Positions 267 through 16,600 of a DNA stretch of 23,650 nt are shown piece after piece. The stretch covers positions 64,001 to 87,650 of the forward strand of contig CAZOMG010000017.1 of NCBI GenBank assembly GCA_964580875.1, given 5' to 3'. This stretch comes from an uncultured bacterium. Lineage in GTDB: Bacteria > Muiribacteriota > Ozemobacteria > Ozemobacterales > Ozemobacteraceae. The notes under the pieces are model-generated. The model did no database searches. It saw only the letters and a program-made list of their open reading frames with translations, and was not told the origin of the DNA. A program made the position numbers and the translations under genes. Each line of letters starts with the position of its first letter. The first letter of the stretch is position 1.

Positions 267-2732
267 CTAGCGGTCGGTGGCAGCTTTTTTTAATGTGGCC
301 TCTGCTTTGCCGTCGATAGATCTGATATGCAGGTCGTGTTGCGGAAACGGAATTTCAATACTGTTCTCACGGAACAGCCTTTCGATTTCGTAATTGATTT
401 CGTTTTTGACTTTCAGGCGAACATCAATGTCGGCAACCCAGGCACGCAGTTCAAAATCAAGTGAGCTGCTGCCAAAATTCATAAAATACACAGCTGGTTC
501 AGGAAATTTCATGACGAAAGGGTTTTCTTGAGCGATTCTCAGTAGTATCTGGGTAACCTTTTGCACATCAGATCCGTAGGCAACCCCAATCTGTATAATG
601 AGCCTGGTCTGGCGGTCAGAGAGAGTCCAGTTGATGACGGTGCTCGAAACCAGATCGCTGTTGGGCACAATCATTTCTGAGCGGTCAAAGGTTTCGACGA
701 CCGTTGCCCGCAGACCCAGATTTTTTATGGTTCCCCATTCGCCTTTGATCTGCACGATATCGCCGACTTTAATCGAGCGCTCAAAAAGCATGATGATGCC
801 GCTGGCGAAGTTATTAACGATATTCTGCAGGCCGAAGCCGATACCGATGCCCAGCGCCCCGACGATTACGGTCAGGTTCTGAAGGCCGATGCCAATGGTC
901 GAAAGCCCGGTGGTAACCGCTAGAACTATGAATGCGTAATGAATAAGGCGATTGATCGAAATACCGACCCCACGCTCAACTTTGCGCCTTGGGTAAACTT
1001 CTTCTTCGAGAAGCCGCTGCAGCAGCCATGAGATGGTCAACGATGCGTAGACAATGACGATTGCCCAGATCAACATGCCGAGTGAAAGCCGGTAGCCCTC
1101 GAGTGAGATGCCAAAAGCGAGCAGATTCTCGGCGGCCAGCCAGATACTGTCGAAAAAGCCCCAGATTGACAGCATCGCGGCCAAAGCAAAAAAGACGACG
1201 ACCGTATCGATGATGACGCTGGTTCGCTTGATGAACAAATGGTAATGCCGGTTGATCAAGTCGTATTTGCGCACGAAACTGTTGTCGAACAGGGCATCAA
1301 CAATGCCTCTGAGCACCAGATTGATCATCCAGGCCACGACCCCGATAAATACAGTTTTAATAGTTACGTCGAGCAGGTGGTTGGAAAAAGCCACGTAACC
1401 GGCAGCCTGCGACAGAAACACCATTGCCAGCGAAGCGCCACCCGTTTTAACCCCGGCGACGAAGGTCATTGATCTGCCTTCTGCCTGGTTGACCCTGGCA
1501 CGCCAGAAACAGAGCATGGCCCCCGCCAGGCCGACGGCCGCCGTAAAAACCCGCATGGCCGGAGCCGGCAGTGCAATGAAAGTAAACAACTGAATGGTCA
1601 GATATAGCGTGACAATGAAGTAGAGAAGGCGCCGCCGCCAGGTCAGGCTGATCAGCCCACCGATCAGCCGTGCTGAAGATATTGAGATCAGGCCGGCAAA
1701 CAGCAGCTGAAAAAGCTTCGGAACGGATTCAAAGAGCGGCATCGGCACCAGCAGGCCAAGCAGAAAACTTGCTGACCATGGCCGGGCAACGATAAAACCG
1801 AGTTTGAATTTATCAAGATCGCGGTCTTTCTGACTGCGCAGAAACCAGGCGGTTCCGGCAATGAAAAAAATCTGCAAAAACAGCACCCAGCCAAAAGTTT
1901 GAAAGAATTTGCGGTCAGGCAGCTCAAAACTGGCGATGCCCAGCCAGAATTCTTCCCATAGGGCTTTGTCGAATTGCATGACAAAGGTTGGGGTGAACAT
2001 GGCCGGCCGGGATTTTCGAAAAAGATCCTTGCGCATCTCACTCATCAACCGGTCAATATCGCTCAACTGCTTTTGCGTTTCGCGCTGAAGTTCGATGACC
2101 TGCTGCTGAAAATTTACCAGCGGCGCTTCGATACCTTCAAGCTTGCCCCGGGCGACGGCGATGATTTCACTGGCATTAGTTACAACGTTGTGCAGCGATG
2201 AACCGGTTTCGGCGGGCAGCGCATTTTTCTGGTTCTGCCAGACTTTTTCGTTTTCAGCCCATTTCTGCTTGAGGGTTTCGCTTTTAACGAGTCTTTCTGA
2301 GATGTAGCGTGCGTGGCGGCCGATGGCATCGATCAGGGCGCGAATTTCGCTGCGCAGCCCGGAAATTTTTTCGAAGCCGTAACTTCCGGACTCCCTGACT
2401 TCGACAAACTGCTGCTGCTGATCATGGAGTTTTTCTTTGTGAATTTTGTGCTCGGCGAGCAGTTTGCTGACGTCGGTTAATTCGGTAATAGTTACGTAAA
2501 GGGCGTCAACTTCGTCTTTCAGCGCTTCAGCCTTTGGCAATACCTCAGCCATCGAATCATTGGCGTTGTCAGGGGTGGTAGAGGCATTGATCGCGGGCAT
2601 CTGCAAGGGCAATGGCCCGATAAACTGGCTGAGATCGATCATCTGAGCCGTTGCGGGCTGACACGCAAAGAAAGCGTGCAAAATCAGCAAAATCAGGCAA
2701 AATTTTGCCAGAAACAAATATTGGCGCGGCAT
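267..2732 (-). CDS. MscS-family mechanosensitive ion channel with large N-terminal periplasmic coiled-coil domain (MscK/YbiO-like), 821 aa
   Basis: ATG at 2730-2732 with an AGGAGA Shine-Dalgarno 6 nt upstream. N-terminal signal peptide, then a long coiled-coil region (LKDEVDALY, QQQQFVEV...). About 10 TM helices follow, then a canonical MscS pore/beta domain (GIGFGLQNIVNNFASGIIMLFERSIKVGDIVQIKGEWGTIKNLGLRATVVETFDRSEMIVPNS). Lies 59 bp downstream of the Ehr-like operon on the same strand. Confidence 0.85.
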   Translation of the reverse strand: MPRQYLFLAKFCLILLILHAFFACQPATAQMIDLSQFIGPLPLQMPAINASTTPDNANDSMAEVLPKAEALKDEVDALYVTITELTDVSKLLAEHKIHKEKLHDQQQQFVEVRESGSYGFEKISGLRSEIRALIDAIGRHARYISERLVKSETLKQKWAENEKVWQNQKNALPAETGSSLHNVVTNASEIIAVARGKLEGIEAPLVNFQQQVIELQRETQKQLSDIDRLMSEMRKDLFRKSRPAMFTPTFVMQFDKALWEEFWLGIASFELPDRKFFQTFGWVLFLQIFFIAGTAWFLRSQKDRDLDKFKLGFIVARPWSASFLLGLLVPMPLFESVPKLFQLLFAGLISISSARLIGGLISLTWRRRLLYFIVTLYLTIQLFTFIALPAPAMRVFTAAVGLAGAMLCFWRARVNQAEGRSMTFVAGVKTGGASLAMVFLSQAAGYVAFSNHLLDVTIKTVFIGVVAWMINLVLRGIVDALFDNSFVRKYDLINRHYHLFIKRTSVIIDTVVVFFALAAMLSIWGFFDSIWLAAENLLAFGISLEGYRLSLGMLIWAIVIVYASLTISWLLQRLLEEEVYPRRKVERGVGISINRLIHYAFIVLAVTTGLSTIGIGLQNLTVIVGALGIGIGFGLQNIVNNFASGIIMLFERSIKVGDIVQIKGEWGTIKNLGLRATVVETFDRSEMIVPNSDLVSSTVINWTLSDRQTRLIIQIGVAYGSDVQKVTQILLRIAQENPFVMKFPEPAVYFMNFGSSSLDFELRAWVADIDVRLKVKNEINYEIERLFRENSIEIPFPQHDLHIRSIDGKAEATLKKAATDR

Positions 2733-2791: not shown

Positions 2792-3550
2792 TTAAATGCG
2801 GCCCATAAACCTGAGAATGCCTTCGAGAATGGTCCAGGGGTTCGGCGGGCAACCGGGAATATAAAGGTCGACGGGTATCAGGTCGCCGATTCCGTCGTTG
2901 ACTTCACTGTTGCCCCTGAATAACCCGCCCGAAATAGCGCAGGCGCCTGTGGCAATCACCACTGAGGGTGAAGGCAGGGCGGCATAAGTTTTTTGCAGCG
3001 CCAGTTTCATGTTCTGGGAAACTGGCCCGGTAACCAGCAGTCCATCGGCGTGCCGTGGCGAGGCGACGAACTGAATTCCGAACCTGGCCAGATCAAAAGT
3101 TGGGGTGCCAAGAACGTTGCAGTCCGCTTCGCAGGCGTTGCAACCACCGGCACTCACCTGGCGGAGCTTGAGGGAACGCCCGAAAATACGCTTGATTTCA
3201 GCGCCCATGGCTTCGGCGGTTTTAAATTCGCTGCTGCTGATCAGCAGATCGTTTTTGTGGCGTGCCGCCAGAGAAAATTCGCGGCTGAAACTGATCAGCT
3301 TGGCCGGGCAGGCTGGCTCACAGGCGCGACAGAAAATACAGCGCCCCATGTCGATTACCGGGCGGTGGTCTGAACCACAACTGACAGCACCGGTGGGGCA
3401 GACATTAATACAGGCTGTGCAGTCATTCTGGCATGTGCCGGTCGCAATCATGGGGCGGCCAGTATAGCGTGGCGCCATTTCCGGTATTTTATCGGGAAAC
3501 GGGAAGGTACGATACTGTTGGTGCAAGCGGGCTTTAAGAATCTGCAGCAT
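2792..3550 (-). CDS. Fusion protein: 2x[4Fe-4S] ferredoxin domain (HyfH/HycF/NuoI-like) + group-4 hydrogenase small subunit / NuoB-like domain (HyfI/HycG-like), 252 aa
   Basis: ATG at 3548-3550 with a GAGGT Shine-Dalgarno 6 nt upstream. The N-terminal half has two CxxCxxCxxxCP motifs (CQNDCTACINVCP, CIFCRACEPACP). The C-terminal half matches NuoB/HycG (ASPRHADGLLVTGPVSQNMKLALQKTY...VIATGACAISGG...DLYIPGCPP) and has CNAC (CxxC) in place of the complex-I CC motif, as in group-4 hydrogenase small subunits. All four proximal-cluster Cys ligands are present. Confidence 0.85.
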   Translation of the reverse strand: MLQILKARLHQQYRTFPFPDKIPEMAPRYTGRPMIATGTCQNDCTACINVCPTGAVSCGSDHRPVIDMGRCIFCRACEPACPAKLISFSREFSLAARHKNDLLISSSEFKTAEAMGAEIKRIFGRSLKLRQVSAGGCNACEADCNVLGTPTFDLARFGIQFVASPRHADGLLVTGPVSQNMKLALQKTYAALPSPSVVIATGACAISGGLFRGNSEVNDGIGDLIPVDLYIPGCPPNPWTILEGILRFMGRI

Positions 3551-3558
3551 ATTTTACC

Positions 3559-5058
3559 TCACAGGTCGTGGCCGCAATAAGAGAGGTTGAAGCTCTTGTT
3601 GCACAGCGGAAAGTCAGATATTTCCTGGTTGCGCAGCGCCAGAGCCAGGCCAAACCAGTTATGAAACGAGGGGTCGGTAATTTTGTAGGTCTGAAGCTTG
3701 CCTTGCGCGTCGGTAACCGCCACATGGCAGATTTCGCCGCGCCAGCCTTCGGTGAGGCTGACACTGATTGACGAGGCCGCCATTTTCAGGGGTGTGGTGT
3801 TACAACCGGCCGGTTCAGCTGATATATCGGCAAGCATGGCTCTGATGAGCCGCAGTGATTCTTTAATTTCAAGCCAGCGAATGGTGGCGCGGGCGTTCAC
3901 ATCGCCGCACCGGCCGATTTCGATGAGCGGAACAGCGGGTGGGTAATCTTCATAGGCTCCAAATGGATGAGAAAGACGAACATCGGTCAGAAGTGCGCAG
4001 GCACGGGCCGCTGGCCCTACCAGGCCGATGGTCACGGCGTCTTCCTGACTGACATGCCCGGTTTCATCGAAACGCGATACTACCGAAGGGGTGTCCCAGA
4101 TCAGGTCGATGGCCGAAATCAGGTCAGCCTCAATCAGTGTCAGTTTATCGAGAATCTGCTGTTTAAGGGTTGCGTCGATATGGTAACCGACGCCGCCGGT
4201 CTTGACCAGACCTCTGCCGAAGCGGTTGCCGCAGATAAGGCCAGTCGTGTTGAGCACGTCGCCCCTGATGCGGCCGCAATAAGATGAAGTCGGCAGAAAG
4301 CCGACATCGCCGGCCATGGCGCCGAGGTCGCCGGTATGGTTGGCGATGCGCTCAAGTTCGAGAGCTATACTTCTGATCAGACTGGCATTTTTGTCTGGTT
4401 TAAGGCCGGCCAGGGCCTCGTAATTCATGGCAAAAGCGGTTGCGTGGCCGATACTCGTATCACCGGCCGTGGCTTCGAGCAGGCGGATAATTTTTTGGGG
4501 AGTTGCGGTGGGAATTGCTTTTTCTATGCCGCGATGCTGGTAGCCAAGCTCAATTTCGAGATGAAAAACCTTTTCGCCGTGGCATTGAAATCTGAAGTGG
4601 CCGGGTTCGATAATGCCGGCATGAACAGGCCCAACCGCAACTTCGTGAACTTCTTCGCCATTGACTTCGAAGTAGTCGGTGACGCCTGGCGAAATCTCGC
4701 GGTTCTGACCGGCCCGGGGCTGAAACCGTATCGGCTTGAGCCAGGGGTGGCCAAGCATTTCGATGCCGTGTATTTCCGCGATTTCGCGTTCAAACCAGTG
4801 GGCCTGCGGAACCTGGGGTGTGAGTGCCTTGAATTTTCGACCACATTGGCAGGCAAACAGTTCTAACTCTGTTGTTTCGTCATCGGCAACAATTGCAATC
4901 ATGGTTGGCTGCTCACCTGGCAGCACGAACAGCGAGGCCAGGCGCACGCCTTTCTGGGTCAGGGTAATCAGATGCTGCCGAAAGCCTTCGATTTCCATGA
5001 CCGGCAGTCGATCTAATGTTGCGCAGGTGCCGTTTTTAATAGTCAGCTGGTTTTTCAC
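3559..5058 (-). CDS. NuoC-NuoD fusion / HycE-HyfG-like large subunit of an energy-converting-hydrogenase-related (Ehr) complex; lacks the cysteines at the N-terminal [NiFe] motif position and the canonical C-terminal CxxC; 499 aa
   Basis: GTG start at 5056-5058, overlapping the upstream stop (GTGA), with a GGAGGTG Shine-Dalgarno 7 nt upstream. N-terminal 30-kDa-subunit-like domain, then GPVHAGIIEPGHFRF and GYQHRGIEK, the hallmark motifs of NuoD and group-4 large subunits. Where RxCGxCxxxH is expected the protein reads EATAGDTSIGHATAF (nt about 4432-4476), with no Cys. The C-terminus reads DFPLCNKSFNLSYCGHDL, a C-x8-C spacing in place of DPCxxC. Confidence 0.85.
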   Translation of the reverse strand: MKNQLTIKNGTCATLDRLPVMEIEGFRQHLITLTQKGVRLASLFVLPGEQPTMIAIVADDETTELELFACQCGRKFKALTPQVPQAHWFEREIAEIHGIEMLGHPWLKPIRFQPRAGQNREISPGVTDYFEVNGEEVHEVAVGPVHAGIIEPGHFRFQCHGEKVFHLEIELGYQHRGIEKAIPTATPQKIIRLLEATAGDTSIGHATAFAMNYEALAGLKPDKNASLIRSIALELERIANHTGDLGAMAGDVGFLPTSSYCGRIRGDVLNTTGLICGNRFGRGLVKTGGVGYHIDATLKQQILDKLTLIEADLISAIDLIWDTPSVVSRFDETGHVSQEDAVTIGLVGPAARACALLTDVRLSHPFGAYEDYPPAVPLIEIGRCGDVNARATIRWLEIKESLRLIRAMLADISAEPAGCNTTPLKMAASSISVSLTEGWRGEICHVAVTDAQGKLQTYKITDPSFHNWFGLALALRNQEISDFPLCNKSFNLSYCGHDL

Positions 5059-6617
5059 AGTATTGCACCTCCGAGAAGGGTGGCTGCCCCGTTGATGGCG
5101 GTTCTGAAAGAATCAGGCAGATAGAAGCCGAGCACTACAGCCGCCGACAGAAAAAAGACCGGCGTGATCAGCTGTAACACAGTTTCGCTAACCTCGTGTT
5201 CTTCGGCCGGAGCATGGTGTCTGCCATGTTTTCGGGTGTGTTTATGTGGTGAATCATGGTCGTCACGGTGATGATCACCACTGGATAAGGGCTTTTCGGA
5301 TTGAACGCCCTGGGTCATCTGCATAAAAATGGTCAGCATGCCGATGAAGACGATCAAGAGAAACAGCAGGTAGAAAGCGGCGATATACCAGCTGCGGGTG
5401 ACCAGCGCAGCACGCAGAATGGTGAATTCGCTGATGAAAGTTCCGAAGGGTGGTGTGCCGGTGATGGCCAGAAACCCTGCCAGCCACAACATGCCTGTGT
5501 AAGGCAGGCTTTTCAGCAACCCGGTCACCTTTTCTACCTTTTTGGTGTCGAATGCCGAAAGAATATTGCCGGCGAGCAGAAAGAGCGAAGATTTGACCAG
5601 TGAGTGGCAGATGGCGTGCAGCATGGCGCCGGCGATTGCCGCGCCACCCAGACCGATACCGGTGGCCAGGATTCCCATGTGCTCGACGCTTGAATATGCG
5701 AGCATCCTTTTATAATCGGGCTGATGTAGAATAAAAATGCCCGAAACGCCCATTGAGACGATGCCGGCAATGACAAGAAGCTCAGATGCAAAAGCGGCGG
5801 TGGCGGGCAGGGCGACGCAGACCTGATAAATGCGAAGAATACCGAGAAAGGCACAGTTCAGAAGGCCCCCTGAAAGCATAGCCGATACGGGTGACGGCGC
5901 TTCGCTGTGGGCATCTGGAAGCCAGGTATGCATTGGCGCAAGACCCATTTTGGTGCCGTAACCCACCAGAACAAAGATAAAGGCGACCTTCAGCCACCTG
6001 ACCTTGAGATAGCCGGCGTAAAGAACCAGCCCGGCGGGGGTAAAGAGCTCAACATGATGCGTAGCGGTCATCGCCAGAAAGAAAACACCCATCAGCGCCA
6101 GCGCGATGCCAACTGAACAGATAATCATGTATTTCCAGGCGGCTTCGAGCGAGCGTCGGCTGCGGTGATAATATATCAGCGGTGTGCTTGCCAGGGTCGT
6201 GGCTTCGATGCCGATCCATTGCAGGCCGAAGTGCATACTGAGAATCGCCAGACTCATGGCCGCGAGAAATAACTGCATACAGGCGGCATAGATGGCGTTA
6301 CGGTTTTTGAGAAACTGCCAGTTGGCAAGATCAGAACCGTCTTCTTGCGGGTGTTTGTCGAGGTAGACCATTGAATAGATGGCTGAACCGGCGAACAGCA
6401 GACTGGTCAGCGACAGAAAAATTCGGGTAAGGTGGTCGACGCCGAGCCAGACGCCGTTCAATTCTCCGGCGTCGCCTTTGCAGAGGCGAATGACCAGAAA
6501 AAGATGCACAAAGGCGACTATTACAAGGATATTCTTGCGCAGGCGCTCTGAATCAATAAATAACGAAATAATGCCGGTAATTACCGGAAGAATGATCAAT
6601 GCCCAGGCGGTATTCAT
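5055..6617 (-). CDS. Antiporter-like membrane subunit, HyfF/NuoN/NuoM (MrpD) family, with a His-rich insertion loop, 520 aa
   Basis: ATG at 6615-6617 overlaps the upstream stop (ATGA). The protein is polytopic, with the conserved TWLPDAHSEAPSPVSAML motif typical of proton-pumping NuoL/M/N-type subunits. A His-rich segment (SSGDHHRDDHDSPHKHTRKHGRHHAPAEEHE, residues about 445-475, nt about 5193-5285) precedes the last TM helix. Confidence 0.8.
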   Translation of the reverse strand: MNTAWALIILPVITGIISLFIDSERLRKNILVIVAFVHLFLVIRLCKGDAGELNGVWLGVDHLTRIFLSLTSLLFAGSAIYSMVYLDKHPQEDGSDLANWQFLKNRNAIYAACMQLFLAAMSLAILSMHFGLQWIGIEATTLASTPLIYYHRSRRSLEAAWKYMIICSVGIALALMGVFFLAMTATHHVELFTPAGLVLYAGYLKVRWLKVAFIFVLVGYGTKMGLAPMHTWLPDAHSEAPSPVSAMLSGGLLNCAFLGILRIYQVCVALPATAAFASELLVIAGIVSMGVSGIFILHQPDYKRMLAYSSVEHMGILATGIGLGGAAIAGAMLHAICHSLVKSSLFLLAGNILSAFDTKKVEKVTGLLKSLPYTGMLWLAGFLAITGTPPFGTFISEFTILRAALVTRSWYIAAFYLLFLLIVFIGMLTIFMQMTQGVQSEKPLSSGDHHRDDHDSPHKHTRKHGRHHAPAEEHEVSETVLQLITPVFFLSAAVVLGFYLPDSFRTAINGAATLLGGAIL

Positions 6618-7288
6618 TCGTCTGCCTCCTCAACCACCGTAGCGGCAATTTCAAGGTCTGAAAGTTCGTTGAAGCGGTCGGCATCAAGGTGATCAAATTC
6701 ACGGTCAATATGGAAAAGCATGATGCCCATGAGGAAAATTCCGACAAAAACGTCGAGCAGAATGCCCAGTTCAACCATCGTTGAAAATTCGCTGCCAAGA
6801 CTCAACCCGGTGGTGAACACCCCGTTTTCGAGCACCAGAAAGCCGAGGGTCTGGGTAAGCGCCTTGCGACGGGTCATCAGAAGCAACAACCCTGAAAAAA
6901 CCAGAAAGAAGCCGCAGGTAAGTGCCACCGGAGATGCGATCGGGTCGGTTTCCAGCAGGGTGCTGACGATCCAGCCAGAAACGGCCAGAAGAAAGACACC
7001 GCACAGCATCGAGGCGCCGAAGCTGATAAAGGGTTCAATTTCGCGTTTGGTACCTGAGACAATCATGGCTTTATTGAGCAGCCATGGCAAAAGCCCGCTT
7101 TTCAAAACGATACTGGTAATCGAGAGGATGACCAGACCTGGGGTGAGATGCCCTGGCCCGACTGCGAACAACTGCAGAAGGCCAAGCAGCAGACCCTGAA
7201 AAGCCACCATGCGGATTGCGACACGCAGGCGACTCGAACCGAGCAGTAACAGGCATGATAATGTAAGTAGTGTAGCGATGCTGTTCAT
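6614..7288 (-). CDS. HyfE-like small membrane subunit (NuoK-related) of hydrogenase-4-type complexes
   Basis: Hydrophobic protein of about 224 aa. LGFLVLENGVFTTGLSL matches the conserved FGYxLMENG region of E. coli HyfE. The ORF track starts at a TTG at 7309; an ATG at 7286-7288 (MNSIATLL), 7 nt after the HyfC-like stop, is the more likely start. The stop overlaps the next start (ATGA). Confidence 0.65.
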   Translation of the reverse strand: MNSIATLLTLSCLLLLGSSRLRVAIRMVAFQGLLLGLLQLFAVGPGHLTPGLVILSITSIVLKSGLLPWLLNKAMIVSGTKREIEPFISFGASMLCGVFLLAVSGWIVSTLLETDPIASPVALTCGFFLVFSGLLLLMTRRKALTQTLGFLVLENGVFTTGLSLGSEFSTMVELGILLDVFVGIFLMGIMLFHIDREFDHLDADRFNELSDLEIAATVVEEADE

Positions 7289-7295
7289 GATATTT

Positions 7296-8216
7296 TCAGT
7301 TCCCTGCAATCTTGAGAATCAGAGCAATAATGGCGAGAGCGCCAGAACCGACAATGAATTTCGGAATATGAATCAGCCGCATTCTGGCGATCGTTGATTC
7401 AATCATGCCGATCAAAACGGCAACCAGAAACATGCCTGCTGCGAAAACCGGAAAATGCAGCAGGGTTGGCATGGCCGGAGTGCTGATCACCAGCCCGACC
7501 AGAAGACCCGAAAACAGCCAGAGTTTATAGGCCGCGGCGTATTCGATCATCGCCAGATCCTTGCTGCTGTAATCGAGAATCATCACCTCGTGAATCATCG
7601 TCAGTTCAAGATGGGTGTTGGGGTCATCGACCGGAATTCTCGCATTTTCGGTGAGCAGTACGATCATCCAGCTCACGGCGATCAGCAGCATAATGGCAGG
7701 GTTCTGTTGCCAGTGCCCGGGCGACAGTTCGGCAAAAATGCCCGAGATACTGAGACTGCCGGTTTCGTATATCAGCACGAGCAGCCCGCAGAATAGCGCC
7801 GGCTCAGCAAGGGCGCTATAGAGCACTTCACGGCTGGCGCCCATTCCCTCAAAGGCTGAACCGCGGTCAAGAGCCGCCGTTACCATAAAAAACCTCGCAA
7901 TGCCCAACAGGTAGGCCATAAAGATGATGTCACCCGAAAAAGTGCAGCAGGCCGGGTTGAAGAAGCCGGGCATCAGCAGGCCGGCACCGATGGTGGCGAA
8001 GAAGATCGCGAAGGGTGCGAGTCGGGTGAGCAGCGTTGCGGTGCGGCTATAGGTCGCTGATTTGTGCATCAGTTTAAACAGGTCAAAGTAGAGCTGGGTA
8101 ACCGGGGGGCCCTTTTTGCCGCCGAAGAAGGCTTTGACCTTGTTGATAATACCCGGAAACAAAGGGGCAAGAAACAGCGACAATATAAACCAGAGGATCG
8201 ATGTGTTATTGATCAT
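7296..8216 (-). CDS. HyfC/HycD/NuoH-like membrane subunit (respiratory-chain NADH dehydrogenase subunit 1 family), 306 aa
   Basis: ATG at 8214-8216 overlaps the upstream stop (ATGA). Eight-TM protein with the NuoH-like N-terminus (PLFPGIINKVKAFFGGKKGPP...) and the conserved TMIHEVMILDYS and ELSPGH-type motifs. Confidence 0.8.
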   Translation of the reverse strand: MINNTSILWFILSLFLAPLFPGIINKVKAFFGGKKGPPVTQLYFDLFKLMHKSATYSRTATLLTRLAPFAIFFATIGAGLLMPGFFNPACCTFSGDIIFMAYLLGIARFFMVTAALDRGSAFEGMGASREVLYSALAEPALFCGLLVLIYETGSLSISGIFAELSPGHWQQNPAIMLLIAVSWMIVLLTENARIPVDDPNTHLELTMIHEVMILDYSSKDLAMIEYAAAYKLWLFSGLLVGLVISTPAMPTLLHFPVFAAGMFLVAVLIGMIESTIARMRLIHIPKFIVGSGALAIIALILKIAGN

Positions 8217-10201
8217 ATTACAGCTACTTTCCAGAGCAGCAGGGCGAGAAGTGCAATGGCCAGATAGCCGACATAAAGGTGCAGATGGCCATGTTGCAGT
8301 GCTCTGAGTGGAACCACCAGCCGGTCAATCAGGGCGAAAAGCGGCAGAAAAAGGTAGCGCAACAGGGAGTCGGGCGCTTCAGTTCTAAAACTGGCGTGTT
8401 GCGGGAACAGGCCGCTGACCTTTTCGCCATGGCGAAAGGGTCTGACGATACTCGAAAAAACTTCAGAAACAGGCTGAGAGAAAGATGACGAAGTATATTG
8501 AATACGTGCATTGGGGGCGGCAAAACCGCAGTCCCAGGTGGGGCGATCCTGGACTTCGCCTTTGGAAAAGCGGCTTTTCTGGATGCGCCAGCCCAGCATG
8601 ACCAGTATGATCAATGCCAGTGAAAAAGCCGATATGGCACGCAAAGGCACGGCCGACAGCAGAAGATCATCGGCCGAAAACAGCATGCCGGCGGGGGCGC
8701 CGATCTCGGCAACAACGCGTGAAACCGGCAGCAGTAACCAGGGCGACAGCAAAGCCACTGAAAAAATAGCCAGAACGAGAATTGCCATGGGGAGCCTTAC
8801 CAGCGGTTTTATTTCCATGGGTGGTGGTTGTTTTTCTTCTCGCGGTGCGCCGAGAAAAACCAGCCCGAAGGTTCGTGAAAAACAGGCGGCGGCCAGGCCG
8901 CCGATGAGACCAAGACCGGCCAGCACAGTAGCAGAGAGCAGCAGGGCTGATGAGGTTCCGAGGCGGGTCGCTTTAAGCCCGGCCAGAAAAATGAGAAATT
9001 CACTGACAAAATTGTTGAAGGGCGGGAGACCGGCAATGGCGGCCGAACCTATTCCAAAGGCAAGGGCCGTGAACGGCATCGACTTCGCGAGCCCGCCCAT
9101 TGACTCCAGTTTTCTCGTTCCGGTGCCGAAATAGACGGCCCCCGAACCAAGAAACAGCAGGCCCTTGCAGATTGAATGATTGAGAATGTGCATCAAGGCA
9201 CCGGCTAAAGCTGCAAAGGCCATGGCCGGCAGCTTCCAGATGGTGGCAAGCACTGCACAACCGAGAGCCATGAGAATAATACCGGCGTTTTCCATGCTGC
9301 TGTAGGCGATGACTTTTTTAAGGTCATGCTGCACCAGCGCGGTGATCAGGGCAAAAACCCCGGTTAACAGGCCGCCGAACAGCAGGGTCCAGCCCCAGGA
9401 TGCCTGTTGAACCGGCAGAAACATCATGACCCTCACCAGCCCATAAAAGCCCATTTTGCTCATCGCACCCGACAGAACTGCCGAAACATGAGCGTCGGCA
9501 AAGGTATATGAATCAGGAAGCCATACATGTAACGGAATCAGCCCGACCTTAACGCCAAACCCGAACAGGGCGAGAAAAAAAATCGTCGAATAAGAACCGT
9601 AGGTGGCTGGAGCATTCAGAAACTGGTCGAATTCAAACGAGCCGGCCGAAGCGCTCAGCAGACCGAAGAGAATGAACAGGCCGGCTGTGCCGATGTGACT
9701 GGCCACCATAAAACGCCAACCGGCGTTGCGAACCGTGCCGATTTCGCTGCGGTGTGTAATGAGAAAAAAAGCTGCAACCGACATGATTTCCCATTCCATG
9801 AGAAAGAGGACAGCGTTGGCGGAAGCGAGCAACATCAACATCGAGGCAATCAGCAGGTTATAAAAAAACCAGTAACTGCCCAGGGCATGCTTTTCGTCAT
9901 AATGGGCGGTAGCGGCGGCATAAATTGCTGCGAGTGAGCCGAGCAGAATAACAGGCAGTGCGAAAAATGCCGATACCTGGTCAAGGCAAAGGGTAGCCGG
10001 GCCGAGGGGCAGGTTGAGCAGATAGCGACCGGTATCAGAAGCAAAAAACAAGCTTTGACAGACAGTCACCAGGGCCATTGCACAACCGGCAAGACACGAA
10101 AGGGCGCCGATCGCTGAAGAAAGGTTGCGCATGCGGCCAAAAAGTCCGGCGAAGCTTCCGCCGACTATAATAATCAAAATTGCGGTTAAAAAGAGCTGCA
10201 T
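8213..10201 (-). CDS. HyfB/HycC/NuoL-like antiporter-type membrane subunit, 662 aa; first gene of the operon
   Basis: ATG at 10199-10201 with an AGAGG Shine-Dalgarno about 9 nt upstream. Large polytopic protein with the HVWLPDSY and AGLPPFNNFVSEF motifs characteristic of the NuoL/MrpA/HyfB family. Preceded by a 420 bp intergenic region. Confidence 0.8.
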   Translation of the reverse strand: MQLFLTAILIIIVGGSFAGLFGRMRNLSSAIGALSCLAGCAMALVTVCQSLFFASDTGRYLLNLPLGPATLCLDQVSAFFALPVILLGSLAAIYAAATAHYDEKHALGSYWFFYNLLIASMLMLLASANAVLFLMEWEIMSVAAFFLITHRSEIGTVRNAGWRFMVASHIGTAGLFILFGLLSASAGSFEFDQFLNAPATYGSYSTIFFLALFGFGVKVGLIPLHVWLPDSYTFADAHVSAVLSGAMSKMGFYGLVRVMMFLPVQQASWGWTLLFGGLLTGVFALITALVQHDLKKVIAYSSMENAGIILMALGCAVLATIWKLPAMAFAALAGALMHILNHSICKGLLFLGSGAVYFGTGTRKLESMGGLAKSMPFTALAFGIGSAAIAGLPPFNNFVSEFLIFLAGLKATRLGTSSALLLSATVLAGLGLIGGLAAACFSRTFGLVFLGAPREEKQPPPMEIKPLVRLPMAILVLAIFSVALLSPWLLLPVSRVVAEIGAPAGMLFSADDLLLSAVPLRAISAFSLALIILVMLGWRIQKSRFSKGEVQDRPTWDCGFAAPNARIQYTSSSFSQPVSEVFSSIVRPFRHGEKVSGLFPQHASFRTEAPDSLLRYLFLPLFALIDRLVVPLRALQHGHLHLYVGYLAIALLALLLWKVAVI

Positions 10202-10622
10202 ATATAACTACCTCTGGGTGCGTATCAGTTGCATGTGCTTTTTTACGCCTACTGCTCACCTTTTGCAAGTCTTTTAAAAAAAATCTCGCAGAATACAGAG
10301 AGATTTTGCATTTGATCTGGCGCATACGGTGGGCCTGGGGTCAGCATTTTTGCCCCCCTCGGCAATCATTGTACGCATGTACCCGTAAAATTAAAAAAAA
10401 GTTAGCTTACTCTTGGAAATTACGAAAATTTCGGTTAGAATGAAAAGCACGGAGATTCCTGCACCTCGCTGAAAATATTGAAATTGTTTCGCAGAGCATG
10501 GTTACGGTTCTGATTCGGTTGTCGCGATGAGTGGTTTCAATATAATCTGATCTGCAGGTTGACCCGGTGGTGTTTTGGGTTCTTTTGTTGCTGCTTTGAC
10601 TTCTTTTAACGCGTAACGATCA
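10202..10622. promoter_or_regulatory. Divergent intergenic/promoter region between the Ehr-like operon (minus) and the lipase-PhaR-like bicistron (plus)
   Basis: 421 bp non-coding stretch, relatively AT-rich, with two A8 tracts (10276-10283 and 10393-10400). A near-palindrome GTACGCATGTAC lies at about 10369-10380. I could not pick out a convincing sigma70 or sigma54 hexamer pair by eye. Note that with the later GTG start of the lipase gene (about 10704) the non-coding region extends to about 500 bp. Confidence 0.4.
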
Positions 10623-12020
10623 ATGATTATCCTTGTCAGAGCACAGCAGAGACTGCATGAAGAGTATAGTGTTACCTCTCGTTTGAAAGGTGATAGAGTA
10701 GTGATTAGAAATTGCCTGCCATTGCTTCGTATCCGAATTGCTTTATCTAAAGTCGCCTGCCTCGGGCTGCTTTTGTTGGTTTTGTGCTGGCCTGCAACCG
10801 CCGGCGCGGTTCTCAATGTCGTCAGTGAATTGTCGGGTCGTGACTGCTCCCCCTGGGAGCGCACCGAACTCATTGCAGACGACGACGCGCATTTTATTGC
10901 TGAGCCTTTTCATCTGAAGAGTCGTCATACTCACAGCATTGTTTTAAAAGCCTTCGGCACCGCCAAACCACATTCGCGCAATTTTCTGCTGCATTTCGCC
11001 CCCCGCTGGGATCGCCCCCGCCAGAAAGTGCCGGTTTTGCTGGTGCATGGCGCCGGTGATAACGCCTGCCGGGGTTTTTGCCACCCATATTCCTTCGACC
11101 TCCCCGAATCCGGAACCATTGACAAACCAGGTATGATGCAGCATCTGGTCCGTGAGGGTTTTTCGGTGTTTGGTATAACCTTTTCACATCCGCATGGCGA
11201 TAACTTTTTGCAGGCGCAGCAGGTTGCCAATGCTATCGCCCGCATTCGCGAGCTGACCGGTTCCGAAAAGGTCGATATTGTCTGTCACAGCAAAGGTGCC
11301 ATGTCGGTGCGAATTTATGCTTCCGATCTCGGCAGTGAATACCCTGAATATGCCTGGTTGACTCCCTTTCGCCACGACATCAGAAAAATCGTTTTTGTCG
11401 CATCGCCTCTCAAGGGCATTGATACTGCCTTCAGATATTACATGTATAATTTTACTGTCATGCAGCAAAAACTTGCCGCGCCGCTTGGCCCGCGTTCAAT
11501 GGCCTGGCAGGGCATGTATGTCGACAATGAAAGCCACAACCGGCTTTTTCCGGGGCAGTTTCAGATGTTGCATAACTGGGCCAACGATGGCATTGACCTG
11601 AGTGGTCAAAGTCTTACTGCAGATGCAAATATTACGTGTAAAGCGCTTTATAACGGTGGCGTCAGTGCGATGCTTGTTTCAGATGGCATTGATCGTGCTA
11701 TACAGGAATCCGGAAATGTGATAGACTCTCTCTGCAAAAAGGGAGTCGACCCCTCGATCACCTGTCATATTCTCGCCGGTACCGACCAGAAAATCGACAC
11801 TCTGAAGCTTTTCTGGCTTGAGCTTCCGGTCGGCGAATTTGCTGACAGCAGCGACGGGGTCTTGTTTCTCAAGAGTGCGACCTATAAGAAGGGTTTGACA
11901 GCCCGCGGTGCCAAGGTTGCCAGTGTCAAGACACTGAACATGCACCACGTTGGCGTGACCGTTCGGCCAGAAGCGCTCAATCACATTTCCGAGGTTTTAC
12001 GTGAAAGAAATTCTGATTAA
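10623..12020 (+). CDS. Secreted lipase/esterase-like alpha/beta hydrolase (family I-type lipase motifs), 465 aa by ORF track; probable true start at GTG about 10704
   Basis: A hydrophobic signal-peptide-like segment (ACLGLLLLVLCWPATAGA) follows an internal GTG at 10704, which has a strong AAAGGTGA Shine-Dalgarno 7 nt upstream. Oxyanion-type VLLVHGAGD and nucleophile-elbow VCHSKGAMS (x-H-S-x-G) motifs resemble Bacillus/Pseudomonas true-lipase boxes. The stop at 12018-12020 overlaps the next gene's start. Confidence 0.7.
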   Translation: MIILVRAQQRLHEEYSVTSRLKGDRVVIRNCLPLLRIRIALSKVACLGLLLLVLCWPATAGAVLNVVSELSGRDCSPWERTELIADDDAHFIAEPFHLKSRHTHSIVLKAFGTAKPHSRNFLLHFAPRWDRPRQKVPVLLVHGAGDNACRGFCHPYSFDLPESGTIDKPGMMQHLVREGFSVFGITFSHPHGDNFLQAQQVANAIARIRELTGSEKVDIVCHSKGAMSVRIYASDLGSEYPEYAWLTPFRHDIRKIVFVASPLKGIDTAFRYYMYNFTVMQQKLAAPLGPRSMAWQGMYVDNESHNRLFPGQFQMLHNWANDGIDLSGQSLTADANITCKALYNGGVSAMLVSDGIDRAIQESGNVIDSLCKKGVDPSITCHILAGTDQKIDTLKLFWLELPVGEFADSSDGVLFLKSATYKKGLTARGAKVASVKTLNMHHVGVTVRPEALNHISEVLRERNSD

Positions 12021-12576
12021 AAAATACGACAACCGTCGTTTGTATTGCGTTGAAGAAGCCAGATATGTTTCCCTCACCGAGATTCGCGATTTTTTGCAAC
12101 GCGGCGACAAGGTCAAGGTTGTCGAAAAAACCACCGGCAAAGATATCACCAAATACATTCTGATGCAGGTGATGCTCGAAGACCGCTATGAACTGGTGCC
12201 GACCTATTTTTACCAGATGATGCTGCAATCACAGCCCGAAGCACTCGATTATTTTTTCCAGCAGTTCTTCCCCTGGATGATGAGCATGTACAAAAACTAC
12301 CAGGAAGGCAAATTCGCGTTGCCGAGCATGCCCGGCATGCCAGCCATGCCCAGCACGCCGTTTCAGAATCCCTGGATGCAGATGCCCAACCCTTTTCAGG
12401 GCATTAACCCTTTTATGCAGCAGGCGGCGACCCCGCAGTCAACCGCGACTGCTGCCCCTCCGCCCCCGGCCGGCAAAAAAGCGGGCAAACCTGAGGCTCC
12501 CGCCTCCGGTGATGATAAAATGGCCGAGATTCTCAAGCGCCTGCGCGAACTCGAAGAAAAGCTGCACTCAGAGTGA
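12001..12576 (+). CDS. PhaR-family DNA-binding protein (PHA/PHB accumulation regulator N-terminal domain) with Met/Pro/Gln-rich low-complexity C-terminal tail, 191 aa
   Basis: GTG start at 12001 with a GAGG Shine-Dalgarno 7 nt upstream; the start lies 20 nt inside the end of the lipase gene. The N-terminus (ILIKKYDNRRLYCVEEARYVSLTEIRDFLQRGDKVKVVEKTTGKDITKYILMQVMLE) closely matches the conserved PhaR N-terminus (IKKYPNRRLYDT..S.Y.TL.DV....VKVVDAKSG.DLTRSILLQIILE). The C-terminus (MPGMPAMPSTPFQNPWMQMPNPFQGINPFMQQ...) is low-complexity and ends in an amphipathic helix. Confidence 0.75.
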   Translation: MKEILIKKYDNRRLYCVEEARYVSLTEIRDFLQRGDKVKVVEKTTGKDITKYILMQVMLEDRYELVPTYFYQMMLQSQPEALDYFFQQFFPWMMSMYKNYQEGKFALPSMPGMPAMPSTPFQNPWMQMPNPFQGINPFMQQAATPQSTATAAPPPPAGKKAGKPEAPASGDDKMAEILKRLRELEEKLHSE

Positions 12577-13510: not shown

Positions 13511-13635
13511 GCGGTATCGATTCATCGATCACGATGGCGACGGGGCACTGTCATTTCCCCTGAATTACGCCCGCCACCATGAAGTATTTGCATTTTTATA
13601 AAAATAAGACTGTCATAAGAACACGGAGATTCATC

Positions 13636-16600
13636 ATGTTGAACAATATTGGCACTGGTAAGCAAGGCTTTGTTTTGGTTTTGCTCGTGGCTTTGCTGGT
13701 TTTTTGCCAGGCCAATCCGGCGACGGCTTTGCAGCAATTACGATACCCCACTTTCGCCACCCCCTGGACAGAAACAGGCAAAGTTTTAGCTGCTGAGCCT
13801 GTTCTGTTTTCTAACACGACCCCTAATACTTCGGGGAACGGTCGCCGGGGTCTCTATGAGCGTCCCAATCAGTCAGGCACCAAGCAGGGCGATGGTTACA
13901 TGCAACTGGCATTTCCGGCCGTCGCTAAAAATGCTTCAACCACAGTATTGGTGCTTCTGTCTGTCAGAGAACCTACTCTTGCAAAACAGGCCAATAAGTG
14001 GTCGATGACCACAAAGGGTACCATCAGAAAATCCGATGAAACGGTAATTGCTGACCTTTTTAGCCGCACTTTGATTGAAGGTCAACAAACAGATACCTGG
14101 CAAGATCTGACCTGGAGCGGCACTCTGGCGCCTGCCGGTGTGAACGAACGCCTTTTCCGAATCTACTGGTTCATAGAGATCGTTGCCAACAACAAAGATC
14201 AGGTTGGAGCCGACTTCAGTGACGTTTACCTGCACATGAGCCCTTGCGGCCTGGCGGCCGCCGAAGAAGCGGTTGATGGTGGCGGAGTCACCCTCACCTG
14301 GAACCCAAGCGCACCGGGTACTGGCCAGCCGGGTTTTGATCCTGCCACCGCTCCATATCGTATTTATCGCCGCACCGACCCTCTGGCAGAATGGCAGTTG
14401 ATCGCCCAGTGGCCAACCGCGCCATGGGTGGCACCGGCGGCCACCACCTATACAGATACCACCTCACCTGCTTCAGAGACCGTATATTACTGCATAACCG
14501 ATTTCGACACCAATCTTTATGAATCGCCAAAGTCGCCCGAAGCTGTTTTTAAACCGGCCAGGCTGGTAATCGATGAGGTGACATCTGGTTATGAATCGGT
14601 CACCATCGGTCAGACGGCCGAAGTTTATGTTAAGCTGCACAACTCTGGCAACAGCCCCATCGATCTTTTTGCCCTCGAACTTGATTTTGAAGGCCCGGCT
14701 TCAGCGGCCTACTCTGTCGTGCCGCCGACCCTGTCGCCGGCTGCGCCTTTGACGCTTGCCGGGGGAGCGAGTGCCACTCTGACTTTTCAGGTGACCATAC
14801 TCGATAACCTCACTGCCCCGGGCTTCGAAACGATAAATGCTTCGGGGGCAGCACGTGCCACCGTCCGCAACCTTACCGTCACCGATACCCAGGCCGACGA
14901 CGACAAGAAAGAACGCTGGACGATCTGCTGGCCAGCTTCCCTTGAAATTACCGAAATAACTGTACCGCCCCGGGTTTTTCGTGGCCAGGTCGGAGCCACC
15001 ATAGACATTACTACCCTGAATAACGGTGGTGAGAACGCGGCGGGTGAATGGCTCAATACCGCGTTTAAGTTTGAGCCGGGCGGCGCCGTCGATTTCACCA
15101 ACCTCAGACTTGACCCGTTGAATACTTTGCCGGTCGAGATTAGCCAGAATAATACCATTACCAGGCGTTATCTGGTCGATGTTTCGGCGAATGCCCAGAT
15201 TGGGCCTTGCAATATTTTTGGCCGCATCTATTACCAGGATGTCAACCTGCGGGGCGACAGCGATTTCTGGACTGACTTCGATGATTCACCGGTCGCTTCC
15301 TGGTCGGTTCTGGCCGGTATCATGCGCACCTTCAGAACGTCATCGTATCTGACAGCCACCAGTACCTTCAATGCCGGCGCCAACAACGTGTTTGCCAAAG
15401 CTGAGAACCTGCAGCCTCTGACCAGTCATCGCTTCAGGTGGTTTGACCCTGATGACCATGAGGTTCTGACCAGCGGCATGGTGCAGACCAACGATCTGGG
15501 GGTCATGACCTATGAATTCCCGCTGACTGGTGCAGCCCATGGCCGCTGGCGGGTGGTGGCAACCAAGCCGCTGCTCGACACGCCACTTGCCGAAGCTTAT
15601 TTCTGGGTCCAGGACCCGGCTGCTATTTCAATCAGTCTGGGCATTCCGCCAATAATTGTCGAAAATCGCTACTTCAACGCTACCATGACGATGACCAACA
15701 TCGGTGAAGCGGCAGTTGCCCAGGCCTATGCCGGTTCGATTCTAAGAGTTAACAGTGTGGGCAACGCCAGTCTGGGTTCATTGCCGACTCCGACCTACCG
15801 TACCATCAGTGGCTTTGGAACTGGTATGTTCAGCTGGGGTTTTACTGCCACCACCATGGGTTCCTACTCATTGGAGGTAAAGGGCTACGGTTACGACGAC
15901 AACGACGGACGCTTTCTTGAAACGGCGAGTGTAACCAGCAATGTGGCCACGATCACCACGGCGCCAGTTCTCTCGGTAACCGGGGTGAGCGAGACCTATG
16001 ACAATGTATCACCAGGGCAGGCAAACCTGACCGTCAATATGGATATCGCCAACACTGGCGGCTCGCCGGTGTATGTTAATGCTGCGTCTCTGACCTTTGA
16101 TTCTGGCGCAGTTGCCCAGAGTTACACCCAGGTTTACGCTTCGCCGCCGGTATTTCCGTTCGTTCTCGATGGTAACTCAACCGCAAGAATCGTTTTTACG
16201 GTGGCGGTTGATGCGAGTTCACTGCCGGGTGCTGCGCTTATCAGGGGTTCTTTTACCGCATCCGAGGTTTACGATCTGGCGTGGGGCTACGGAGTGCCGC
16301 ACGGAGGTGGCACCGGGAACTGGACGGTTGCCGACGTTTCTTACGGTGAATGCAGTGCCAACCAGGATTTTCTGCCGCAACAGTATACGTTTAACCAGAA
16401 TCAGAGAATTTATGTCAGATTTCATAATGTGCCCGACAGTAAAAAAAATAATTATGCTGTTCTTTTTTTCGATGATGAAACCCTCGGAATCATCGGTGAT
16501 GAGCGGGAGTCGGTCTATGGTATTCCTGCCAATACTGAAAAGACGGTGACCACCAATGTTCAGCTGCCTGGCGACGCAGCAGTCAGAAAGTGGCGGGTTG

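Follow-up and report, generated by a model that had tools for sequence, protein, structure and literature searches.

We analyzed a 23.6-kb stretch of DNA (23,650 nucleotides; hereafter the window) from an uncultured bacterium of the Ozemobacteraceae, and describe here six co-directional, tightly packed genes on its minus strand (positions 2792-10201) that are predicted to encode a Geobacter-type energy-converting-hydrogenase-related (Ehr) complex, EhrA-B-C-D-L-S. Our preferred reading, to which we give a probability of about 0.6, is that in this Riflebacteria-like anaerobe the complex acts as a six-subunit, ferredoxin-linked, ion-translocating oxidoreductase without a [NiFe] site, kin both to hydrogenase-4/Ech and to the Q- and P-modules of complex I. 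The name Ehr goes back to Geobacter, with a literature from 2005 (Coppi) and 2013 (Marreiros et al.), and denotes a group-4-like cluster whose large subunit is devoid of the Ni-Fe cysteines (PMC6349859, PMC10284858, PMC3569383, citing Coppi 2005 and Marreiros 2013). An earlier annotation of the window, made from the letters alone (the original prediction), had placed the operon in this group. The operon agrees with the published definition on every testable point—architecture, loss of the ligands and retention of the proximal cluster—and is syntenic with loci of cultured Geobacteraceae; the classification is thus supported, and the finding is by the same token not new. What is new is a further member, in Riflebacteria, of a family that is already named and very widespread.

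The open reading frames (ORFs) lie where they had originally been placed, and Pfam and NCBIfam agree with the proposed Hyf-type assignments (HyfB, C, E and F, a NuoCD-type large subunit and a ferredoxin-fused small subunit), including the two antiporter-like subunits, HyfB-like EhrA and HyfF-like EhrD:

8213-10201, minus strand: EhrA, HyfB-like antiporter-like membrane subunit of the NuoL class, 662 amino acids (aa); NCBIfam hydrogenase 4 subunit B over the full length (7.5e-146) and Pfam Proton_antipo_M
7296-8216, minus strand: EhrB, HyfC/NuoH-like membrane subunit, 306 aa; Pfam NADHdh (7.6e-30)
6614-7309, minus strand: EhrC, HyfE-like membrane subunit, 231 aa from TTG; NCBIfam hydrogenase 4 membrane subunit over the whole length (1.2e-20)
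5055-6617, minus strand: EhrD, HyfF-like antiporter-like membrane subunit, 520 aa; NCBIfam hydrogenase 4 subunit F (1.6e-102)
3559-5058, minus strand: EhrL, fused NuoC-NuoD/HycE-like large subunit, 499 aa, GTG start; Pfam Complex1_30kDa and Complex1_49kDa
2792-3550, minus strand: EhrS, NuoI/HycF/HyfH-like 2x[4Fe-4S] domain fused to a NuoB/HycG/HyfI-like domain, 252 aa; Pfam Fer4_7, Fer4 and Oxidored_q6
10202-10622, no strand: AT-richer intergenic region of 421 bp from ehrA to a divergent alpha/beta-hydrolase gene, with lower GC in its 1-kb bin

Adjacent genes overlap by 4 nt at three of the five junctions, through ATGA at B/C and E/F (in Hyf lettering, B-C-E-F-L-S) and GTGA at F/L, just as first described, and an 8-nt spacer containing GAGG separates L from S. 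For ehrC, the TTG start at 7309 is doubtful, and an ATG at 7288, 9 nt past the upstream stop, is equally plausible. On this layout, the operon appears to be self-contained and translationally coupled. The intergenic region 10202-10622 is presumed to hold its promoter; sigma-70-like matches there are weak, and a search for a riboswitch or another leader RNA found no Rfam family and no tRNA. No terminator-like hairpin is listed for the interval between ehrS and the downstream channel gene (2732-2792), and the two may be co-transcribed. A sigma-54 promoter, an idea taken from the NifA-dependent hyq operon, was rejected upon finding no -24/-12 match in the intergenic region and a total number of matches at chance level.

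Related loci were recovered by scanning one genome per species for stretches with the motif IEPGHFRF or DFPLCNKS; at least 600 matched, and 80 were fetched. Gene order is B-C-E-F-L-S in every fetched locus long enough to tell. Identity to the window proteins across the 80 loci ranges from 47-56% for L and 43-59% for S to 31-49% for the E subunit, and EhrL is the best-conserved protein of the operon after EhrS.

Large subunit: loss of the Ni-Fe ligands and a hybrid pocket

By sequence, the best solved relative of EhrL is E. coli HycE (7z0s_E; phmmer, 1.2e-35), which is also the top Foldseek match (template-modeling score 0.86); the AlphaFold2 model of EhrL has a predicted local distance difference test score of 86.5 and a predicted template-modeling score of 0.90. 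We read the ligand positions from the phmmer alignment with 7z0s_E and from a MAFFT alignment with HycE and HyfG. RVCGICGFAH of HycE pairs with ATAGDTSIGH in EhrL, setting A198 and T201 against Cys241 and Cys244, and DPCYSCTDR pairs with NLSYCGHDL, setting S493 and G496 against Cys531 and Cys534. Both aligned motifs lack the ligand cysteines, and the four Ni-Fe ligand positions are therefore occupied by A198, T201, S493 and G496. This bears out the earlier statement that the RxCGxCxxxH position is devoid of cysteine and that all four ligands are lost: EhrL conforms neither to the L1 motif (RxCGxCxxxH) nor to the L2 motif (DPCxxCxxH/R) of group 4 [NiFe] enzymes. The sole cysteine inside either motif is C495, one residue ahead of the last ligand position. 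EhrL ends at the residue aligned to HycE R537, i.e., at the end of mature HycE, and has no counterpart of the 32-residue C-terminal extension of HycE and HyfG.

In an alignment of 111 EhrL homologs, the columns average 62% identity and some 100 of them never vary, which points to a protein under strong constraint rather than a decaying hydrogenase. EhrL keeps hydrogenase second-sphere residues in common with HycE and HyfG: E151 in the EPGHFR loop, H205, R440 (the PRG arginine, followed by the shared G441), D482, P484, S489, Y494 and D498; the Gly of CG is shared as well. We take the Glu of the EPGHFR loop to be the proton-relay Glu of [NiFe] hydrogenases. D251, which is invariant, pairs with Thermus thermophilus Nqo4 D139, the coupling Asp of complex I, and with an Asp of E. 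coli NuoCD, at a position where HycE has Phe. As judged from these alignments, the pocket of EhrL is predicted to be a hybrid of hydrogenase and complex I. It fits the "missing link" description in the literature, although it does not name the substrate by itself.

Phyletic distribution

The nearest relatives of EhrL are proteins from metagenome-assembled genomes of Candidatus Riflebacteria (64-76% identity), with other matches reaching 80%; the next relatives, at 52-58%, come from Cloacimonadota, Sumerlaeia, Thermoanaerobaculia, Syntrophobacterales and others. The 80 fetched loci span Planctomycetota, Verrucomicrobiota, Geobacterales/Desulfuromonadales, Acidobacteriota (Geothrix), Spirochaetota, Lentisphaerae, Bacteroidota/Ignavibacteria, Gemmatimonadota, Alphaproteobacteria and more, with Leptospiraceae among the respiring lineages. 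Loci of Geomonas limicola, Geobacter sp. and Pelobacter sp. are syntenic with the window, their large subunits being 49-52% identical to EhrL, and the Geomonas limicola large subunit, used as a query, recovers cultured Geobacteraceae first (Geomonas, Citrifermentans and Pelotalea). Many fetched loci, those of Geobacteraceae included, encode a second HyfB-like protein, which in Geobacteraceae brings the count to seven genes, as in the described Ehr cluster GSU0739-0745 of Geobacter sulfurreducens (PMC7894505, PMC8691401). Ehr subunits are made in Geobacter (PMC7894505, PMC8691401), where proteomics detected them in greater abundance on formate (PMC7894505).

A related cluster on rhizobial plasmids comprises a regulator gene, hyfB, nuoH, hyfE, hyfF, "nuoC" and nuoB, with a large subunit 32% identical to EhrL; it is the hyqRBCEFGI operon studied in Azorhizobium caulinodans. 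That operon is NifA-dependent (PMC2650096), and its deletion results in poorer diazotrophic growth and in altered H2 uptake and evolution in vivo (PMC2650096, PMC3357923). The original prediction had called the substrate, electron donor and ion specificity of the Ehr group experimentally unknown. This is only partly right, given the H2 genetics and physiology of the sister Hyq and the proteomics of Geobacter Ehr (PMC2650096, PMC3357923, PMC7894505).

Three loci contain a second, divergent B-C-E-F-L-S cluster beside the Ehr-type one (L026, 13251-20569; L058, 2241-9977; L082, 14553-19380), one of them on a Variovorax plasmid. The second large subunit in the two genome loci is 35-37% identical and also lacks the Ni-Fe cysteines. 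On the plasmid, an Ehr-type cluster with a fused small subunit adjoins a second hyf-like cluster, of which hyfB to hyfF fall inside the fetched stretch. As the divergent clusters adjoin Ehr-type ones, paralogous Ehr/Hyq-like complexes co-occur.

Iron-sulfur arm and membrane subunits

EhrS scores above cut-off with the NCBIfam NuoB subfamily and is matched by HycF/HyfH models on residues 1-113. Alignment with its Hyc, Hyf and Nuo counterparts indicates that all 12 Fe-S cysteines are kept: eight in two NuoI/HycF-type four-cysteine motifs, the first of which has the non-canonical spacing CxxxCxxCxxxCP, and four in the proximal set C137, C140, C204 and C234 (CNAC, GACAISGG and PGCPP). The latter align with the HycG, HyfI and NuoB ligands, confirming what had been claimed for the small subunit. 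EhrS thus has the binding sites for an unbroken chain of three [4Fe-4S] clusters.

In the membrane arm, EhrA keeps E138 of transmembrane helix (TM) 5, K218 of TM7, K249 of TM8, H342 of TM11 and E401 of TM12, a pattern as in E. coli HyfB, and EhrD keeps E138, K223, N254, H338 and E397, as in E. coli HyfF with its Asn for the TM8 Lys. In EhrB, residues D45, R129, E138, D197, E204 and R280 align with the same residues of NuoH, HycD and HyfC. The putative ion-translocation residues are thus intact in both antiporter-like subunits and in the NuoH-like one. EhrC additionally gives a weak Pfam match to Oxidored_q2 (NuoK-like) at residues 130-218. Two local features stand out. The TM5-6 loop of EhrB, a key coupling element in complex I, has a 3-residue insertion (THLELTMIHE; NTHLELTMIHE versus AEQEL---QEG; residues ~199-210, window 7587-7622, minus strand) that is common only to the Ehr of Geomonas and the Hyq of Rhizobium (loci L033 and L081), and is absent in HycD, HyfC and NuoH. 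EhrD has a His-rich insert, SEKPLSSGDHHRDDHDSPHKHTRKHGRHHAPAEEH, with nine His in 35 residues (~440-474, window 5196-5300, minus strand) ahead of the last predicted helix; nothing comparable is present in any of the 80 related loci. Metal binding by this insert is one possibility.

Gene neighborhoods and regulation

No hyp, hycI, formate dehydrogenase, HycB-like or NuoE/F/G-like gene is present among the remaining genes of the window, consistent with the initial report that neither maturation genes nor an electron-input module accompany the operon there. The flanks, which that report had singled out as the place to look for partner oxidoreductases, were surveyed by clustering the flanking ORFs of the 80 loci: no partner oxidoreductase or formate dehydrogenase, and no hyp or hycI gene, recurs within 10 kb of the operon. 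The recurrent families consist only of a regulator, sensor kinases and a few SulP transporters; the largest minus-strand "families" are antisense artefacts of crude ORF picking.

This pattern bears on the proposal that Ehr serves as the membrane part of a system that is linked to formate dehydrogenase and resembles formate hydrogenlyase, fed by a separately encoded FdhA/NuoEF-like unit. The HycF-like domain of EhrS does correspond to the attachment surface of HycB/FdhH in formate hydrogenlyase (7z0s). An arrangement of this kind has been put forward for Riflemargulisbacteria and Saganbacteria (PMC6349859), and in Geobacter the subunits are most abundant in formate-grown cells (PMC7894505). Nevertheless, with no formate dehydrogenase, HycB-like or NuoE/F-like gene in the window, none recurring in the flanks of the 80 loci and an operon that appears self-contained and translationally coupled, we regard a formate dehydrogenase-linked arrangement as improbable.

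The recurrent regulator is a ~235-aa protein combining a helix-turn-helix (HTH) domain, HTH_17, with an EIIA-2 domain of the phosphotransferase system (PTS). In 32 of the 80 loci its gene immediately precedes the HyfB-like one (for example L004, 4241-4951; L006, 4206-4916; L012, 4235-4936; L051, 4351-5013; L073, 4281-4988; and ~27 further loci), and in ~19 of these the gap between its end and the start of ehrA is -3 to +11 nt. Abutting ehrA as it does, the gene seems to open the operon, in the place that hyqR takes in hyq, and this arrangement suggests that a nitrogen-PTS-type phosphorylation signal controls ehr in these loci. The window has no such gene, a search for it there giving a best E-value of 0.076.

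Some of these neighbors could also be accommodated if the complex were a degenerate relic or a redox-independent cation transporter, its Fe-S arm vestigial or regulatory and its membrane part acting as an Mrp-like antiporter. The catalytic metal has been lost, the EIIA(Ntr)-like regulators that recur upstream elsewhere belong to a class tied to K+ homeostasis in other bacteria, and an MscS/MscK-type mechanosensitive channel gene starts 60 nt past ehrS in the window. That channel gene, however, does not adjoin the operon in the other fetched loci. Furthermore, the 12 cluster cysteines are conserved across the aligned Ehr, Hyc, Hyf and Nuo proteins, dozens of pocket residues are invariant, and the redox subunits EhrL (47-56%) and EhrS (43-59%) are better conserved than the membrane-bound E subunit (31-49%). 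We therefore consider a relic or simple transporter highly improbable.

Contigs of the Joint Genome Institute (JGI) that encode an identical protein have the same channel gene downstream, followed by lysine-fermentation genes. On one of them, from a digester (L085, 5954-12070; JGI 3300009692, Ga0116171_10003206), these encode the subunits of a B12-dependent lysine 5,6-aminomutase and a radical-SAM lysine 2,3-aminomutase. The presence of lysine aminomutase genes on the source contig indicates an amino-acid-fermenting host.

Six conserved cysteines of EhrL

Six cysteines of EhrL—C159, C261, C276, C444, C486 and C495—are conserved together in 173 of 202 type-1 EhrL sequences. They include the C-terminal C-x8-C (C486 and C495) and the cysteine of QCHGEK (C159), both present as originally described. 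Each of the six is nonetheless individually replaced in some lineage: C444 by V, L, A or S in at least 14 sequences (L in the cultured Geothrix paludis) and C486 by N in the cultured Geomonas limicola. The divergent second-type large subunits lack most of them. In the AlphaFold2 model, C261 and C276 occupy opposite ends of a 17-residue helix (260-276), ~22 Å apart, and the six therefore cannot form one site. On these two grounds, per-lineage loss and helix separation, we rejected a single metal site built from all six cysteines; a single obligate metal cluster is unlikely. A smaller metal site involving C495, C486 and C159 may exist. The case that the original prediction had named against itself, in which offset cysteines supply the Ni-Fe site, likewise finds no support in the sequence, C495 being the only cysteine inside a motif and every conserved cysteine being dispensable in some lineage. 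For HyqG, its authors noted that both CxxC motifs are missing and that three cysteines are kept (C258, C491 and C497 in A. caulinodans; PMC3357923). Judged by the Rhizobium ortholog, this triad falls on C261, C486 and L492 of EhrL.

These residues bear on the view that EhrL, like HyqG, is a cryptic hydrogenase that turns over H2 at a non-canonical metal site, making the complex a ferredoxin:H+ oxidoreductase like Ech. The site would be formed from C495, C486, C444, C159, D200, H205 and E151 of the old pocket. The invariant EPGHFR loop, R440-G441 and H205 are compatible with such chemistry, as is the conservation of the six cysteines in most type-1 sequences. In addition, deletion of hyq in Azorhizobium alters H2 flux even though HyqG lacks the CxxC motifs (PMC2650096, PMC3357923), and Geobacter Ehr is more abundant on formate, a growth condition that the authors connect with H2 formation (PMC7894505). 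Against it stand the replacement of every one of the six cysteines (C444L in Geothrix paludis and C486N in Geomonas limicola among them), the geometry that precludes one six-cysteine site, and the absence of hyp genes from the window and from the 10-kb flanks of the 80 loci. The Hyq data, moreover, are genetic and physiological and could reflect an altered electron supply to nitrogenase: if Hyq fed low-potential electrons to nitrogenase, which itself evolves H2, the phenotypes would also be explained. Taken together, we find a cryptic hydrogenase quite unlikely. It is a long shot, too, that the Ehr/Hyq large subunit carries an undescribed non-[NiFe] catalytic site, possibly a mononuclear metal held by some of C495, C486, C444, C159, D200, H205 and E151, that activates H2 or another small substrate. 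If true, such a site would account for the H2 uptake and evolution reported to depend on Hyq in Azorhizobium, and hydrogenases would gain a new class spread over many bacterial groups.

Proposed function

Under our preferred reading, a ferredoxin-linked ion-translocating oxidoreductase, a soluble low-potential carrier, most likely ferredoxin, would bind EhrS at its NuoI-like domain, in the manner of Ech. Electrons would then pass through the two [4Fe-4S] clusters of this domain to the NuoB-like proximal cluster and reduce a second substrate in the pocket formed by EhrL, EhrS and EhrB, with menaquinone as the first choice and H+ as the second. The resulting charge or conformational change would power the movement of H+ or Na+ through EhrB, C, A and D. 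Menaquinone is favored because most host lineages respire with quinones, the complex retains the N2-type cluster and the coupling Asp of NuoD, and there are no ligands left for a catalytic metal; even so, we name it only tentatively, at roughly one chance in three. Lysine fermentation would be expected to yield reduced ferredoxin, in support of the donor side of this scheme.

Several points weigh against this assignment. The donor, the acceptor and the ion of every Ehr rest on inference. The quinone ligands His38 and Tyr87 of Nqo4, where E. coli NuoCD also has His and Tyr, pair with I150 and G199 of EhrL. Ehr has been reported in Riflemargulisbacteria genomes in which a full quinone pathway was not found (PMC6349859), which weakens quinone as a universal acceptor, and the in vivo H2 phenotypes of the sister Hyq (PMC3357923) would favor protons/H2. 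A literature search on the quinone content of Cloacimonadota gave nothing usable.

The same machinery could also run in the opposite direction, with the ion-motive force used to make reduced ferredoxin. In this form, ferredoxin or flavodoxin would be reduced from quinol or another mid-potential donor, feeding biosynthesis or nitrogenase with low-potential electrons, as Rnf/Fix do. Complex-I-type machines are reversible, many hosts are respiring and quinone-containing (Geobacteraceae, Geothrix, Planctomycetota, Verrucomicrobiota and Leptospiraceae), and the HTH-EIIA protein that recurs upstream belongs to the nitrogen-PTS type of regulator. The NifA dependence of hyq and its requirement for good diazotrophic growth (PMC2650096) point in the same direction. 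The host of the window operon, on the other hand, looks fermentative from its lysine fermentation genes and would be expected to dispose of reduced ferredoxin rather than generate it, and reverse operation depends on the same putative quinone step as the forward reaction. We accordingly judge a reverse-running pump unlikely.

Other genes of the window

The operon is flanked by the following genes:

267-2732, minus strand: MscS/MscK-type mechanosensitive channel gene, 821 aa, the one that starts 60 nt past ehrS
10623-12020, plus strand: alpha/beta-hydrolase (lipase/thioesterase-like, with an N-terminal hydrophobic segment), divergent from ehr
12001-12576, plus strand: PhaR-type polyhydroxybutyrate/polyhydroxyalkanoate accumulation regulator, overlapping the alpha/beta-hydrolase gene by 20 nt
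13579-20532, plus strand: 2317-aa protein with an N-terminal hydrophobic segment; sub-threshold Pfam matches to MG2, DUF7507 and NPCBM_assoc

The overlapping hydrolase and PhaR genes may be polyhydroxyalkanoate-related, and the 2317-aa product is probably a giant secreted or surface protein. Downstream of the latter are two small ORFs that received no assignment and a gene for a DUF4124 protein.

Significance

Ehr is among the most widespread energy-converting membrane complexes without an assigned reaction. Because it stands structurally between hydrogenases and complex I, its chemistry is relevant to the evolution of quinone reduction from proton reduction. Rather than a new kind of system, the window contributes a well-defined and compact operon of six genes from a fermentative candidate phylum. 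Its interest rests on Ehr biochemistry, which is no more testable through the window than through the Geobacter or rhizobial systems. What the analysis does is narrow the options, through a self-sufficient operon, a predicted hybrid pocket, cysteines that are individually dispensable and, in many lineages, an operon led by an HTH-EIIA gene. Public annotations of Ehr genes also mislead automated metabolic reconstruction. Cysteine-less members appear in databases as "NADH-quinone oxidoreductase subunit C", "hydrogenase", "Ni,Fe-hydrogenase III large subunit" and "Formate hydrogenlyase subunit 5 precursor".

Comparison with known systems

The closest known system is the Ehr of Geobacter sulfurreducens, compared here through other Geobacteraceae loci: it has the same subunit set and order, no Ni-Fe cysteines in the large subunit and a retained proximal cluster, with EhrL orthologs ~50% identical to that of the window. 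The Geobacteraceae loci have two HyfB-like genes, whereas the window has one. An HTH-EIIA regulator gene precedes many Ehr loci but not that of the window, and the EhrD of the window has the His-rich insert, unlike that of any of the 80 loci.

Hyq of Rhizobium has six structural genes in the Ehr order. HyqG reads RTSGDSTVAY and NCSYSGHDL at the two ligand motifs, ends in SGHDL, and has the GD(S/T) motif, D251, C261 and C486 in common with EhrL. It differs in its small subunit, HyqI being a plain 177-aa NuoB homolog without the 2x[4Fe-4S] domain that is fused to it in the 252-aa EhrS, and in its leading gene, hyqR, which has no counterpart upstream of ehrA in the window. Hyq is also NifA-controlled and found in aerobic diazotrophs, and in vivo H2 phenotypes have been claimed for it and none for Ehr.

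E. coli Hyf and Hyc (formate hydrogenlyase; 7z0s) have homologous B, C, E, F, G, H and I subunits and the same pattern of antiporter residues. Unlike Ehr, they are true [NiFe] enzymes, with RxCGxC and DPCxxC motifs, the 32-aa C-terminal extension and hycI/hyp maturation genes, none of which is found at the Ehr locus. They further include HyfA/HycB, HyfD and a formate dehydrogenase partner, and encode as separate H and I genes what is fused in EhrS. Ech hydrogenase resembles Ehr as a compact six-subunit ferredoxin:H+ oxidoreductase, with a soluble ferredoxin as its presumed partner and no dedicated dehydrogenase subunit, but it has a [NiFe] site and one antiporter-like subunit, where Ehr has two.

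Complex I and ferredoxin-dependent NDH-1 are like Ehr in having a large subunit without a metal site and a NuoB N2-type cluster as the last in the chain, and complex I has in common with it the coupling Asp (D251, Nqo4 D139) and the acidic residues of NuoH (D45, E138, D197 and E204). In Ehr, however, I150 and G199 replace His38 and Tyr87 of NuoD, and the beta1-beta2 loop is of the hydrogenase type (EPGHFR). Nor does Ehr possess a full complex I membrane arm: NuoA, NuoJ, NuoN and the N-module are missing, leaving a NuoH-like subunit, HyfE and two antiporter-like subunits. MBS/MBX of Pyrococcus furiosus (6u8y) provides a parallel, as a respiratory complex that descends from a hydrogenase but has given up H2 production, and MbsL matches EhrL at 5.5e-11; it is much more distant, with 13 subunits and an Mrp-type membrane arm compared with the six subunits of Ehr. 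Catalysis in MBS is reportedly carried out by a site-differentiated, three-cysteine proximal cluster, whereas EhrS keeps all four of its proximal-cluster cysteines.

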